A stretch of DNA of 5,214 bases from a virus (lineage: Duplodnaviria; Heunggongvirae; Uroviricota; Caudoviricetes), in IMG/VR virus record IMGVR_UViG_2534681705_000014, positions 1 through 5,214 of that record; one strand, given 5' to 3'. Below, one piece after another: positions 1-5,214 of this stretch. Numbering within the stretch: the stretch's first letter is position 1; each line of letters opens with the position of its first letter. The notes beneath the pieces are model-generated. The model was not told the origin of the DNA and ran no database searches. It saw only the letters and a program-made list of their open reading frames with translations. The position numbers and the translations under genes are program-made.

Positions 1-191
1 TCCATGAACCGGCAACGGATGTCAGCCGGGTGTTCTCAACGGTGATAGATATGCCGGCAGGACGGGGCCATGTCACCCTGACGTTTAATGTGTCATCGAC
101 CGGCGCGAACAAATGGACGCCGACAACGTACATCAGCGATTTACTGGTGGTGGTCATGAAAAAATCCACGGCAGGAATCAGTATCAGCTGA
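1..191 (+). CDS. J: Tail tip / host-specificity protein J-like, C-terminal fragment (5' partial; gene continues upstream of the window)
   Basis: Open frame in phase with codons starting at nt 3 runs from the window edge to a TGA at 189-191 (…[21 protein letters not shown]). It is not in the ORF track because it has no start codon in the window. The call is by synteny only: in lambda-type prophages the gene immediately upstream of lom is J. I cannot verify the residues against J from memory. Confidence 0.55.
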
Positions 192-208
192 CGATTTATT
201 AACCCGGA

Positions 209-234
209 GGGGCACCCGAAGCGGTGCCTTTTTT
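209..234 (+). terminator. Rho-independent terminator downstream of the J-like gene
   Basis: Seen in sequence: GC-rich inverted repeat GGCACC (211-216) / GGTGCC (223-228) with a 6-nt loop CGAAGC, followed directly by TTTTTT (229-234), 18 nt after the TGA stop. Confidence 0.7.
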
Positions 235-258
235 ATTGACTGAAAACGAGAGGTAATC

Positions 259-870
259 ATGCGCCATATTTTATTTTTTGTCGCTTTTCTGGCAGGAATG
301 GCCCTTCCTGCGCAGGCTGAAGTCGGACACGGTGCGTTTTCCGTGGGATATGCTCAGGTTCACCCGGGCGGCGTGCCGGCATTGTCCGGTACCGGTGCCC
401 GTACAGGTGATTTAAAAGGGATTAACGTGAAATACCGTTATGAATTCACGGACCATGCGGGTGGTATTGTTTCGCTGAGTTATGCGTCGGCGAAAAAAAG
501 CGACACGATGAAGACGGGTGAAAATACGTTCCATTATGAAAGCCTGCGCGGTCGTTATGTGAGTCTGATGGCCGGCCCTGTCTGGCAGGTCAGTGAGCAG
601 GTCAGTCTCTATGGCACGGCTGGGATGGCTTACACCCGCTGGTCTGACAGTGTTCAGGATTACCGACGTGATGAATTGAAACCGGGGTATGTGAAGGAGA
701 CGACCACCGCCAGTGATGGCTATACCGCACGACACCTGTCGCTGGCATGGGGTGCGGGTCTTCAGTTCAGCCCGGCAGAATCCGTGGCCATTGATATTGC
801 TTATGAAGGCTCCGGCAGTGGTGACTGGCGCACTGACGGTTTCATCGTGGGTGTCGGTTATAAGTTCTGA
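259..870 (+). CDS. lom: Lom-family outer-membrane protein (Ail/Lom/PagC/OmpX-type 8-stranded beta-barrel), prophage lysogenic-conversion gene
   Basis: 203-aa ORF with a Shine-Dalgarno AGAGG (249-253) 5 nt before the ATG. N-terminal signal peptide MRHILFFVAFLAGMALPAQA with an A-x-A cleavage motif. Alternating aromatic/hydrophobic beta-strand pattern and a C-terminal …DIAYEGSGSGDWRTDGFIVGVGYKF ending in Phe, as expected for a BAM-dependent barrel. The segments KGINVKYRYE, FHYESLRGRYVS and KETTTA and the C-terminus match my recollection of phage lambda Lom. Position between J and stf matches lambda. Confidence 0.9.
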   Translation: MRHILFFVAFLAGMALPAQAEVGHGAFSVGYAQVHPGGVPALSGTGARTGDLKGINVKYRYEFTDHAGGIVSLSYASAKKSDTMKTGENTFHYESLRGRYVSLMAGPVWQVSEQVSLYGTAGMAYTRWSDSVQDYRRDELKPGYVKETTTASDGYTARHLSLAWGAGLQFSPAESVAIDIAYEGSGSGDWRTDGFIVGVGYKF

Positions 871-896
871 TTAGCCAGGTAACACAGTGTTATGAC

Positions 897-923
897 AGCC
901 CGCCGGTTCAGGCGGGCTTTTTT
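897..923 (+). terminator. Rho-independent terminator downstream of lom
   Basis: Seen in sequence: perfect 8-bp inverted repeat AGCCCGCC (897-904) / GGCGGGCT (911-918) with loop GGTTCA, followed by TTTTT (919-923). It lies 27 nt after the lom stop and just before the stf ribosome-binding site. Confidence 0.75.
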
Positions 924-934
924 GTGGGGTGAAT

Positions 935-3900
935 ATGGCAGTAAAGATTTCAGGTGTACTGAAAGACGGTGCAGGTAAACCGGTACAGAACTGCACAATC
1001 CAGCTGAAAGCAAAACGTAACAGCACCACGGTGGTGGTGAACACGGTGGCCTCAGAAAATCCGGATGAAGCCGGGCGTTACAGCATGGACGTTGAGTACG
1101 GTCAGTACAGCGTTATTCTGATGGTGGAAGGCTTCCCGCCATCGCATGCCGGGACCATCACCGTGTATGAAGACTCACAACCGGGTACGCTGAATGATTT
1201 TCTCGGTGCCATGACGGAGGATGATGCCCGTCCGGAGGCACTGCGCCGCTTTGAACTGATGGTGGAAGAGGTGGCGCGTAACGCGTCCGCAGTGGCACAG
1301 AACACGGCAGCCGCGAAGAAGTCAGCCAGCGATGCCGGCACATCAGCCCGTAAGGCGGCAACCCATGCGACTGATGCTGCAGGCTCAGCACGTGCAGCCA
1401 GCACATCAGCCGGGCAGGCCGCGACGTCGGCTCAGTCAGCGTCTTCCAGCGCAGGAACGGCATCAACAAAGGCTACTGAAGCATCAAAAAGTGCTGCCGC
1501 TGCAGAGTCCTCAAAAAGCGCTGCGGCTACCAGTGCCGGTGCGGCGAAAACGTCAGAAACGAATGCTTCAGCGTCACAACAATCAGCCGCCACTTCTGCA
1601 TCCACCGCGACCACGAAAGCGTCAGAAGCTGCCACCTCAGCCAGAGATGCGTCGGCTTCAAAAGAGGCGGCAAAATCATCAGAAACGAACGCATCATCAA
1701 GCGCCAGTAGTGCAGCTTCCTCGGCAACGGCGGCAGGAAATTCCGCGAAGGCGGCAAAAACGTCCGAGACGAACGCCAGGTCTTCTGAAACGGCAGCGGG
1801 ACAGAGCGCCTCGGCTGCGGCAGGCTCAAAAACAGCGGCTGCGTCGTCTGCCAGTGCCGCGTCAACAAGTGCCGGGCAGGCCTCAGCCAGTGCCACCGCT
1901 GCCGGAAAGTCGGCAGAAAGCGCCGCATCATCCGCTTCAACAGCCACAACGAAGGCTGGCGAAGCCACTGAACAGGCCACGGCAGCAGCGAGGTCAGCTT
2001 CCGCAGCGAAGACATCCGAAACGAACGCGAAAGCGTCGGAAACCAGCGCAGAATCCTCAAAAACGGCTGCCGCATCGTCAGCCAGTTCGGCGGCGTCATC
2101 GGCATCATCGGCGTCTGCTTCAAAAGATGAGGCGACCAGACAAGCGTCAGCAGCGAAGGGCAGCGCCACGACGGCATCCACGAAGGCGACAGAGGCAGCT
2201 GGCAGTGCGACGGCGGCAGCTCAGAGCAAAAGTACGGCGGAATCCGCGGCAACGCGCGCCGAGACAGCAGCAAAACGGGCAGAGGATATTGCATCCGCTG
2301 TGGCGCTTGAGGATGCGAGCACGACGAAAAAGGGGGTAGTACAGCTCAGCAGTGCGACCAACAGCACTTCCGAGTCACAGGCGGCAACGCCAAAAGCCGT
2401 TAAGGCCGCGTATGACCTGGCTAACGGGAAATACACCGCACAGGACGCTACGACAGCACAAAAAGGAATTGTCCAGCTCAGTAGTGCAACCAACAGCGCA
2501 TCTGAAACGCTTGCCGCGACACCGAAAGCAGTGAAAGCAGCTAATGATAATGCGAATGGTCGGGTACCTTCTGCCCGTAAGGTGAATGGTAAGGCGCTTT
2601 CAGCGGATATAACACTGACGCCGAAAGATATTGGTACGCTTAACTCAACAACAATGTCATTCAGCGGTGGTGCTGGTTGGTTCAAATTAGCAACGGTAAC
2701 CATGCCACAGGCGAGTTCCATCGTTTACATCGCATTGATTGGTGGCGCTGGTTACAACGTCGGTTCCCCACATCAGGCAGGCATTTCAGAACTGGTTCTA
2801 CGAGCAGGCAATGGAAACCCCAAAGGAATTACCGGGGCTTTGTGGAAGCGTACAGCCGTCGGATTAACGAATTTCGCCTGGATCAACACATCCGGCGATA
2901 CATATGATATTTACGTTGAGATTGGCAATTATGCGACGAGTGTAAATATCCATTGGGATTGTACTGCAAATGCGTCAGTTTCTGTTTATACCTCGCCAAC
3001 ATATTCAGCGAGTAAGCCTTCCAGCGTTACCTATGGTGTTGTTTATACGATGTATAGCTCACATCAGAAACCTACACCATCAGATATTGGAGCACTGCCA
3101 ACAACCGGAGGAACAGTTTCAGGTCCGTTGTCTGTTACAGGTGGATTAACTGGTTCATTGAATGGTAATGCAAGTACAGCCACGAAATTGCAGACGGCAA
3201 GATCTATCGGTGGAGTTGTTTTCGACGGTTCTGCAAATATTAACCTTCCAGGTGTAAACACTACGGGTAATCAGAACACCACTGGTAATGCTGCAACTGC
3301 TACAAAACTTCAGACTGCAAGAAAAATATCCGGTGTTCCATTTGATGGTTCTACTGATATCACTTTAACCGCCGCGCATGTGGCTGCTTTTGCCAGAAGG
3401 GCAACGGATACATATGCCGATGCGGATGGTGGCGTTCCCTGGAATGCCGAATCAGGCGCTTACAATGTCACCCGCTCTGGCGACACCTATATTCTGGTTA
3501 ACTTCTATACCGGAGTCGGAAGTTGCCGGACCCTGCAGATGAAGGCGCATTACAGAAATGGAGGTCTGTTCTACCGTTCCTCAAGAGATGGCTATGGTTT
3601 TGAGGAAGGCTGGGCAGAAGTTTATACCTCGAAAAATCTTCCACCAGAAAGCTACCCAGTCGGCGCACCAATCCCGTGGCCATCAGATACCGTTCCGTCT
3701 GGTTATGCCCTGATGCAGGGGCAGACTTTTGACAAATCTGCCTACCCGAAACTTGCAGCCGCTTATCCGTCAGGCGTGATCCCTGATATGCGTGGCTGGA
3801 CGATTAAGGGCAAGCCCGCCAGTGGTCGTGCCGTATTGTCTCAGGAACAGGACGGCATTAAATCGCACACCCACAGCGCCAGCGCATCCAGTACGGATTT

Positions 3901-4294
3901 GGGGACGAAAACCACATCGTCGTTTGATTACGGCACTAAATCCACGAATAACACTGGTGCGCATACCCATAGTGTTAGCGGTACGGCTGCTTCAGCCGGT
4001 GCACATACCCATTCGATGACATTTGTTTCAGGTGGTTCCAGTGGTGCTCCGGGAAGTGGATCACCTGATTATTCTAAATACAGTGTTAACACTTCTTCTG
4101 CAGGCGCTCATACGCACTCTGTATCGGGTACTGCTGCAAGCGCAGGTGCACACGCACATACTGTCGGTATTGGTGCTCATACGCACTCCGTTGCGATTGG
4201 TTCACATGGACATACCATCACCGTTAACGCTGCTGGTAACGCGGAAAACACCGTCAAAAACATCGCATTTAACTATATTGTGAGGCTTGCATAA
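935..4294 (+). CDS. stf: Side tail fibre protein Stf, intact long form (about 1119 aa from the ATG), with conserved N-terminal domain, Ala/Ser/Thr-rich periodic stalk, tail-fibre repeats, a distinct central module and a His-x-His-rich C-terminal tip
   Basis: One uninterrupted frame. The ORF track begins at GTG 929 (MNMAVK…) but ATG 935 ([12 protein letters not shown]…) is better placed, 5 nt after GGGG at 926-929, and matches the lambda Stf N-terminus as I recall it. N-terminal block [26 protein letters not shown]…[15 protein letters not shown]…[23 protein letters not shown], the tail-fibre repeat [11 protein letters not shown]…[10 protein letters not shown], and the C-terminal …[36 protein letters not shown]…[29 protein letters not shown] are hallmark lambda Stf / T4 gp37-type segments. 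The stop TAA (4292-4294) overlaps the tfa ATG. Confidence 0.93.
1280..2326 (+). repeat. Degenerate tandem repeat tract inside stf: about 25 copies of a 42-bp (14-residue) Ala/Ser/Thr-rich unit
   Basis: Seen in sequence: the AAK(T/S)SETNA motif recurs in-frame at nt 1541, 1667, 1751 and 2003, spacings of 126, 84 and 252 bp, all multiples of 42. The protein parses into 14-residue units (…[14 protein letters not shown] / [14 protein letters not shown] / [14 protein letters not shown] / [14 protein letters not shown]…). GC is high here, about 70% in the 60-nt line 1801-1860, and the tract throws off long shadow ORFs in other frames. Confidence 0.8.
2333..2542 (+). repeat. Two tandem copies of the conserved phage tail-fibre repeat (about 44 aa, 132-bp period) inside stf
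   Basis: Seen in sequence: [34 protein letters not shown] and [33 protein letters not shown], with matching DNA gtacagctcagcagtgcgaccaacagc (2336-) and gtccagctcagtagtgcaaccaacagc (2468-). The motif corresponds to the phage tail fibre repeat family as I recall it. Confidence 0.8.
3164..3370 (+). repeat. Two tandem copies of a 40-aa (120-bp) tail-fibre shaft repeat inside stf
   Basis: Seen in sequence: [28 protein letters not shown] and [28 protein letters not shown], starting 120 bp apart (3164 and 3284) and separated by a Gly/Asn/Thr linker [12 protein letters not shown]. Confidence 0.8.
3863..4225 (+). repeat. His-x-His repeat region of the Stf C-terminal tip (SHTHS, GAHTHS x3, GAHAHT, SHGHT)
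   Basis: Seen in sequence: repeated (S/G)AH(T/A)HS units, including two near-identical [17 protein letters not shown] blocks. Established knowledge: the homologous T4 gp37 tip coordinates metal ions through His-x-His motifs in a trimeric needle, and the lambda Stf C-terminus belongs to this family. Confidence 0.8.
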
Positions 4295-4875
4295 TGGCAT
4301 TCAGAATGAGTGAACAACCACGGACCATAAAAATTTATAATCTGCTGGCCGGAACTAATGAATTTATTGGTGAAGGTGACGCATATATTCCGCCTCATAC
4401 AGGTCTGCCAGCAAACAGTACCGATATTGCACCGCCAGATATTCCGGCAGGCTTCGTGGCTGTTTTCAACAGTGATGAGGCATCGTGGCATCTCGTTGAA
4501 GATCATCGGGGTAAAACGGTTTATGACGTGGCTTCCGGCGACGCGTTATTTATTTCTGAACTCGGTCCGTTACCGGAAAATGCCACTTGGTTATCCCCGG
4601 AAGGGGAGTTTCAGAAGTGGAACGGCACAGCCTGGGTGAAAGATGCAGAAGCAGAAAAACTATTCCGGATCCGGGAGGCGGAAGAAACAAAAAACAGCCT
4701 GATGCAGGCAGCGAATGAGCATATTGCGCCACTTCAGGATGCTGTAGATCTGGAAATCGCAACGGAGGAAGAAAACTCGTTGCTGGAAGCCTGGAAAAAG
4801 TATCGGGTGTTGCTGAACCGTGTTAATACAACAACTGCACCGGATATTGAATGGCCAGTAGCACCTATAGGGTAA
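4294..4875 (+). CDS. tfa: Tail fibre assembly protein Tfa (chaperone for Stf trimerisation, T4 gp38-like family)
   Basis: 193-aa [57 protein letters not shown]…[24 protein letters not shown], which matches lambda Tfa as I recall it. Shine-Dalgarno GAGG (4282-4285) lies inside the end of stf. The ATG (4294-4296) overlaps the stf TAA, consistent with translational coupling. Confidence 0.93.
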
Positions 4876-4961
4876 ATTCGTAATGATTACCTAAATACGT
4901 TATTCTTTTGTTCAAAAAGTGATTTTGCTATAGGTAGGGAGTATGTTCTTGGATTAATAAT

Positions 4962-4992
4962 AAAAAATCGCCATGAAAGAGCTTCATGGCGA
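4962..4992 (-). terminator. Strong rho-independent terminator oriented for minus-strand (leftward) transcription, facing the 3' end of tfa
   Basis: Seen in sequence: perfect 10-bp inverted repeat TCGCCATGAA (4968-4977) / TTCATGGCGA (4983-4992) with a 5-nt loop AGAGC. On the minus strand the hairpin is followed by UUUUUUAUUAUU (complement of 4950s-4967). There is no T-run on the plus-strand side. Confidence 0.7.
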
Positions 4993-5214
4993 GTACATAA
5001 ACGTACAAAATGTGATGAAAGTAGAGTGGCGTAAGCCACTATATTAAGATATGACAATAGCAAACAAAAGTAAATAACATTTTATGGACGTTTAATTGTT
5101 AATTATAAAAACTAGAGTGCCCGATATTGTTTATCTTGCTTTAAAATAATGTACTCAAACCAAATTTTTGAGCTAAAAGCTCAAATAATATAAATGCAAT
5201 GATAATGTTTAATA

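Follow-up and report, generated by a model that had tools for sequence, protein, structure and literature searches.

We analysed a 5,214-nt stretch of DNA (hereafter, the window) that corresponds to the rightmost part of the tail region in a lambdoid prophage and in which all genes lie on the + strand (Table 1). At its left edge the window includes just 191 nt of J; the longer J sequence upstream of this point was taken from relatives. The J fragment matches the Pfam family Ig_GpJ_C (PF12421; E = 5.5e-18), and its nearest solved structure is 9wca_J (E = 8.6e-24). Next comes lom, which is the sole long + strand ORF within 192-934, and then stf and tfa. The C-terminus of Stf (residues 905-1119) matches the receptor-binding tip of T4 gp37 (2xgf; E = 5.6e-88), and residues ~130-470 (window 1330-2340) consist of long, low-complexity repeats rich in Ala, Ser and Thr, a region that accounts for a number of long spurious ORFs, both in other frames and on the - strand. 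The counterpart of tfa in E. coli 90-9281 is annotated tfaQ. Entirely inside the tfa coding sequence (4637-4835, + strand) lies a strong match to IS009, a candidate sRNA family (Rfam RF02111), with 212 bits where the gathering score is 117 (E = 1e-52).

Beyond tfa, positions 4876-5214 form an AT-rich tail (GC 0.28) with a terminator-like hairpin on the - strand (4992-4968) and a 58-aa ORF on the same strand (4887-5063). This tail has a 100% identical counterpart behind tfaQ in E. coli 90-9281, in which the prophage borders on a truncated ydfJ (the Qin-type site), and it is probably the right end of the prophage or another cargo region.

Table 1. Genes and sequence features of the window (positions in nt, numbered from the first base of the window).
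Feature	Position	Strand	Details
J, 3′ end (last 62 codons)	3..191	+	C-terminal receptor-binding Ig domain; stop TGA 189-191
T1, predicted intrinsic terminator after J	206..237	+	stem 211-216/223-228, loop 217-222, T-tract 229-234 then ATT
lom cassette, presence/absence unit of 685 nt	236..922	+	alignment of lom-less 1H12 and HannyBb with lom-bearing L052 and the window
Shine-Dalgarno GAGAGG	248..253	+	5 nt 5′ of the lom ATG; read from sequence
lom, Ail/Lom family outer-membrane β-barrel protein (predicted), 203 aa	259..870	+	ORF, ATG to TGA
Perfect 13-bp palindrome TAACAC-A-GTGTTA	880..892	.	in the 26-nt lom-T2 spacer; read from sequence
T2, predicted intrinsic terminator of the lom cassette	897..923	+	stem 897-904/911-918, loop 905-910, T-run 918-923
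stf, side tail fibre, 1119 aa	935..4294	+	ORF; Pfam phage_tail_N, Phage_fiber_2, Collar
tfa, tail fibre assembly protein, 193 aa	4294..4875	+	Pfam Caudo_TAP, E = 6e-43

lom encodes a predicted outer-membrane β-barrel

The product of lom covers positions 8-199 of the 199 in the Pfam profile Ail_Lom (PF06316; 171.1 bits against a cutoff of 23) and shares 64% identity with lambda Lom and 88% with the Lom of Stx phages. It aligns over residues 2-203 with a solved chain of lambda Lom (9wso_C; E = 3e-83), and it also matches Yersinia Ail (3qra) and OmpX (1qj8), with E values of 6e-15 to 7e-14. Homology to these three structures predicts an eight-stranded β-barrel fold. At the N-terminus, we read from the sequence a predicted Sec signal peptide, MRHILFFVAFLAGMALPAQA followed by EVGH (residues 1-20, window 259-318), with a basic n-region, a hydrophobic core and an A-x-A site, which aligns with the leader of lambda Lom. 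At the other end, the uninterrupted ORF closes with ...FIVGVGYKF, placing an aromatic residue last, as in a β-signal. An earlier note on this DNA had described lom as an intact gene with a signal peptide and a C-terminal Phe, and the complete 203-aa ORF, the full-domain Pfam match, the leader and the ...GVGYKF end all bear this out. An adhesion or serum-resistance role is described in literature that concerns lambda Lom only (PMC3594210, PMC1151598). Upstream of the gene, the Shine-Dalgarno sequence is kept in lambda and in all Lom loci examined.

Two side observations concern this gene and its structural relatives. On the - strand, a promoter-like site (295-268; CTGCCA-16-TAAAAT, 9/12) lies within the signal-peptide codons of lom and points toward J; it is also present in locus L024, and the count of such sites in the window equals the chance expectation. 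PDB entry 9wso, the solved lambda Lom, holds two Lom chains, of which chain C was the one matched. Structure queries with J, Stf and Tfa did not retrieve this entry, and none of its remaining chains is J, Stf or Tfa; a literature search found no paper on 9wso.

Two conserved hairpins flank lom

T1, in the gap after J, has the stem GGCACC/GGTGCC, with six pairs (five of them G-C) closing the loop CGAAGC; the T-tract (U6) follows directly, the sequence there reading TTTTTTATT. The stem-loop alone folds at −10.0 kcal/mol, and in a 41-nt context it reaches −15.1 kcal/mol (z = −1.99), a stability equalled in 7/200 shuffles. T2, in the gap after lom, has a stem of eight pairs (seven G-C), the loop GGTTCA and a U-run, and folds at −17.6 kcal/mol (z = −2.3). 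A consensus terminator scan detected T2 and failed to pick up T1, probably because a G-U/A-U extension of the T1 stem consumes the T-tract; T1 was examined by direct folding, the scan having overlooked it. Across the window the scan returned 8 terminator-like sites, against 6.3 ± 2.7 in shuffled sequence. With folding z-scores of only about −2 and a scan at chance level, energy and scan alone are weak evidence, and both would sit comfortably with the view that the hairpins are chance inverted repeats without function.

Position and conservation argue strongly against that view. The operon has just two intergenic gaps, and T1 and T2 fill them, each positioned exactly after a stop codon; both hairpins recur in lambda, in Stx phages and in ~160 IMG/VR loci that were fetched by their Lom or by the N-terminus of their Stf. 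Both have the form of an intrinsic terminator, a G+C-rich stem-loop with a U-tract directly after it on the sense strand, and the GenBank record of phage mEp460 (NC_019716) annotates a rho-independent terminator at both the T1-equivalent and the T2-equivalent site.

The variation of T1 among relatives is a further argument. At least 17 distinct sequence variants were seen, the T-tract being invariant in all of them, and the stem variants carry paired substitutions (GGGCACCA/TGGTGCC, GGGCGCCA/TGGCGCC, GGGCGTCA/TGACGCC and, in lambda, CGTCCG/CGGGCG). In the alignment, 95.6% of cells were paired in the true register, compared with 35-57% in register controls. Both sides had changed in 4/8 pairs, with 15 cells changed on both sides and with replacements of G-C by A-U and of C-G by U-A at two stem positions; the observed covariation score was reached in 0/500 shuffles. 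Such compensatory changes beside an invariant T-tract point to selection on an RNA structure plus a U-tract, and they contradict an origin by chance, which we regard as having almost no probability left.

For T2 the pattern is different. This hairpin is nearly invariant in ~145 loci, and the few changes to its stem comprise five that are one-sided and wobble-compatible, three that break a pair and no compensatory pairs. The support for T2 therefore comes from conservation rather than covariation. Taken together, the case for the two hairpins as terminators is made by position and conservation, with covariation added for T1. On this evidence the two + strand terminators that the earlier note had seen on either side of lom appear to be real and conserved, and its coordinates for them (209-234 and 897-923) are exact.

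Searching the two spacers against Rfam assigned no family. One match, to Trp_leader at 843-925, was rejected: it scored 21 bits where the gathering score is 41 (E = 0.78) and reflects only the shape of the terminator. The palindrome between lom and T2 is unchanged in most Lom loci and has a one-base variant in L024, L029, L031 and L054. It may bind a protein, or it may simply belong to a conserved block: the sequence around it is conserved throughout, and the conservation is therefore not specific to the palindrome.

T1 belongs to the tail-operon backbone, and lom to a separate cassette

In phages HannyBb (PP925841) and 1H12 (NC_049947), J is followed directly by stf, with no lom between them. 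Their junction runs from the J stop codon through ~20 nt and a T1-type hairpin to TTTTTTATT joined to TGTGGAGTGAATATG of stf. Since T1 is thus also present in lom-less relatives, it belongs, as judged from these alignments, to the J-stf backbone: it is the resident predicted terminator of J and lies outside the moron. The presence/absence unit is the cassette delimited in Table 1, whose boundary is ambiguous by 2 nt (236-920 to 238-922) and whose two junctions both fall within T-tracts. It contains the Shine-Dalgarno leader, lom, the 26-nt spacer and the T2 hairpin, and leaves T1 outside.

Both arrangements are common. Of 5,426 complete E. coli genomes, at least 1,145 contain a lom-less J-T1-stf junction and 4,236 (~78%) the lom-T2-stf junction, the latter in as many as 13 copies (median 2). 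In two respects, then, lom resembles a moron: it is extra DNA that is absent from collinear relatives (HannyBb, 1H12 and those E. coli genomes), and its own downstream terminator, T2, lies within the indel unit. As to the proposal that lom is an inserted unit, the comparison with relatives supports a presence/absence cassette, since clean lom-less J-stf junctions with collinear flanks were found. As to the direction of the event, an insertion of lom and its deletion between T-tracts are both possible.

Two loci that had seemed to depart from this scheme were set aside. L024, taken at first for a lom without an upstream J, actually has a lom whose 5′ end is interrupted by an IS3-family element (L024 1233-2446). 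L158, the sole stf locus with no lom immediately upstream, carries an IS200-like transposase gene (~1870-2490) directly before stf, which replaces the T2 context.

A promoter search upstream of lom

As defined by Juhala and Hendrix, a moron consists of a promoter, a gene and a terminator, usually with a deviant GC content (PMC3594210), and reviews place lom among morons or prophage-expressed genes (PMC3594210, PMC7067206, PMC1151598). Were lom a classic autonomous moron, the repressed prophage would transcribe it from a lom-specific promoter, placed within the 192-258 spacer or at the 3′ end of J, and T2 would end the transcript. The good terminator directly after lom and the absence of the cassette from relatives both fit such an arrangement.

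The upstream sequence and the composition of the gene fit it less well. We scanned positions 1-258 for + strand sigma-70 sites and found no match of 8/12 or better with this consensus scan, which is a test of sequence only and may miss weak, non-consensus or activator-dependent promoters. In five relatives, over up to 600 nt upstream, the same kind of scan gave scattered weak matches, none of them positionally conserved; one 9/12 site was seen at −429 in L004. The gap between the T-run of T1 and the lom ATG is 24 nt long and is taken up by the Shine-Dalgarno sequence. The hexamer TTGACT at 235-240 was rejected as a −35 element of lom, since by inspection a matching −10 would land on the lom start codon. 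Further upstream, lom-bearing and lom-less phages have a homologous 3′ end of J, and a promoter in it would therefore not be specific to lom. Any promoter inside J would, moreover, have to fire through T1, which its transcripts would meet first. Finally, the GC content of lom (0.542) does not deviate from that of J (0.556, in L004) or stf (0.538).

Published reports on expression point both ways. Lambda lom is stated to be transcribed in lysogens (PMC1151598, PMC7067206), and the lom of phi24B, whose genomic surroundings are different, is described as constitutively expressed and not coupled to phage regulation (PMC3342100, PMC4651098). In one array study lom went undetected in lysogens, a result that speaks against autonomous expression, and little is known about the lom promoter (PMC2147009). 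Overall, we consider it unlikely that lom is an autonomous moron here. The earlier note had called the arrangement the classic moron layout; the classic layout is promoter-gene-terminator rather than terminator-bracketed, and one of the two brackets, T1, is part of the backbone. The description of lom as autonomously expressed likewise has no visible promoter to stand on and goes back only to the literature on lambda and phi24B.

Mosaicism around the lom-stf boundary

The window is recombinant: positions 1-978 are 98.7% identical to L004 (IMG/VR contig UViG_2534681703_000014), and positions 738-5214 are 99.7% identical to the ydfJ-adjacent prophage of E. coli O128:H27 90-9281, whose lom is another allele, encoding 199 aa. 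For 1-1100, the phage and E. coli collections gave best DNA matches of ~90%. A 42-mer had no exact counterpart in a collection of genome contigs, and a scan by protein turned up nothing close. Loci in which the N-terminal two-thirds of Lom are only ~50% identical share one block, made up of the final 130 nt of lom, T2 and the opening bases of stf. The 3′ end of lom, T2 and the 5′ end of stf are thus a recombination block common to different lom alleles and different stf bodies.

This mosaic structure bears on another reading of the hairpins, in which they serve mainly in RNA processing or stability, or as linkers for recombination at module boundaries, lom being an ordinary late gene. Mosaic breakpoints do cluster at lom-stf, where the two nearest matches to the window part company (L004 matching 1-978 only and 90-9281 matching 738-5214 only); in L062, L074 and L080, the downstream sequence switches right after the T-run of T2; and the indel boundaries fall in T-tracts. 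Set against these points are the full intrinsic-terminator form of both elements, with a G+C-rich stem directly followed by six T, and the preservation of the T1 stem by compensatory changes next to an unvarying T-tract. We therefore judge it quite improbable that such roles are the main function of the hairpins, although terminator and linker or stability roles are not mutually exclusive.

Two groups of loci depart from the window in other ways. The Lom proteins of L036-L040 (80% identical, with the end ...GYRF) are encoded upstream of a different lom-stf spacer of 150 nt (e.g. L037 3104-3254), which contains TTGGTATAATGAG (extended −10-like TGGTATAAT) and its own terminator, GAAGCCCG...CGGGCTTTTTT, before a divergent stf. 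A lambda-type lom (67% identical to the window Lom, which is the level of lambda lom) was found on low-coverage contigs, L171-L185, from unrelated assemblies that include Neobacillus, Kitasatospora, Pseudomonas, Shewanella and Bradyrhizobium. Some of these contigs are ~48.4-48.5 kb long, and the group looks like contamination of the assemblies with lambda DNA.

A model for lom expression

The reading that we favor, with a probability of roughly 55%, is that lom is a 685-nt accessory cassette in the J-stf slot behind T1, and that this cassette has no recognisable promoter and is expressed as a Q-gated late gene. During lytic growth, Q-modified polymerase from the late promoter pR′ would pass T1 and T2, a single late transcript would give rise to the J, lom, stf and tfa products, and Lom would reach the outer membrane via Sec and BAM. 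In the repressed prophage, unmodified polymerase would be halted at T1 and T2, so that T1 would keep stray tail-gene transcription off lom, as T2 would for stf and tfa.

The need for late transcription to read through this region, which the earlier note had also proposed, is well grounded for the genes beyond lom. Only 11 nt separate the T-run of T2 from the stf ATG (935), which leaves no room for a promoter, so stf and tfa can be transcribed only by read-through. That the read-through depends on antitermination by Q is suggested by analogy with lambda biology, Q, qut and pR′ lying outside the window.

For a cassette with no recognisable promoter, any Lom made in lysogens would have to originate in one of three ways: by leak through T1, from a promoter that is non-consensus or activator-dependent, or in a minority of cells that are spontaneously induced. 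A formulation that we hold only tentatively, and think rather doubtful, has lom as a promoterless passenger of the late operon gated by T1, with lysogenic conversion arising from T1 leak or from the induced minority and with the T-tracts acting as the joints of the cargo.

The location of lom between J and stf and its flanking terminators are already known and very common (textbook lambda; the mEp460 GenBank record). The sole refinement offered here is that T1 is assigned to the tail-operon backbone and that a lom promoter is not visible. That lom is an autonomously transcribed moron is a common statement, unproven at the level of sequence. The distinction is relevant to prophage annotators and to students of prophage-encoded virulence factors, and otherwise matters little.

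Comparison with known systems

The lom region of lambda (J02459/NC_001416, lom at 18965-19585) has the same order as the window: J, a hairpin with its T-tract, a Shine-Dalgarno sequence, lom, a spacer, a second hairpin with its T-tract, and stf (orf-401). The lom-stf spacer and T2 are almost identical in the two, and high conservation extends over the final 130 nt of lom and the beginning of stf, whereas the Lom protein as a whole shares only the 64% identity given above. Lambda T1 has a different sequence, CGTCCG-GGAA-CGGGCG, and the same shape. The stf of the window is intact at 1119 aa; in laboratory lambda, stf is frameshifted. Phage mEp460 likewise resembles the window in the annotated rho-independent terminator on each side of lom, but it encodes the 199-aa type of Lom and has a T1 variant, GGGCGTCA-GGAA-TGACGCC, that is unlike that of the window.

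HannyBb and 1H12 are homologous to the window in the 3′ end of J, the T1-type hairpin, the T-tract, the stf leader and the N-terminus of Stf; they differ in having no 685-nt leader-lom-T2 cassette, so that T1 stands directly before stf. Gene 15 of HK97, an archetypal moron (PMC3594210), is like lom in being an extra tail-operon gene that relatives lack, with a terminator after it and a benefit to the lysogen. By definition the archetype also has its own promoter and a deviating GC content, neither of which was found for the lom cassette. Among cellular proteins, the eight-stranded barrels Ail, OmpX and PagC/Rck belong to the same Pfam family or clan as the window Lom; their genes are chromosomal or plasmid-borne and have their own regulated promoters, whereas the lom of the window is phage-borne and lies in a late operon.

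Finally, the J-stf slot of Salmonella Gifsy-2 holds, as in the window, an ORF with a signal peptide (STM1049.2n) and a T2-like terminator (...GGGCGGGCTTTTTTATGGAGG) before the stf ATG. Its cargo is an 80-aa protein unrelated to Lom. By this parallel, the gap between J and stf may be a general cargo slot.
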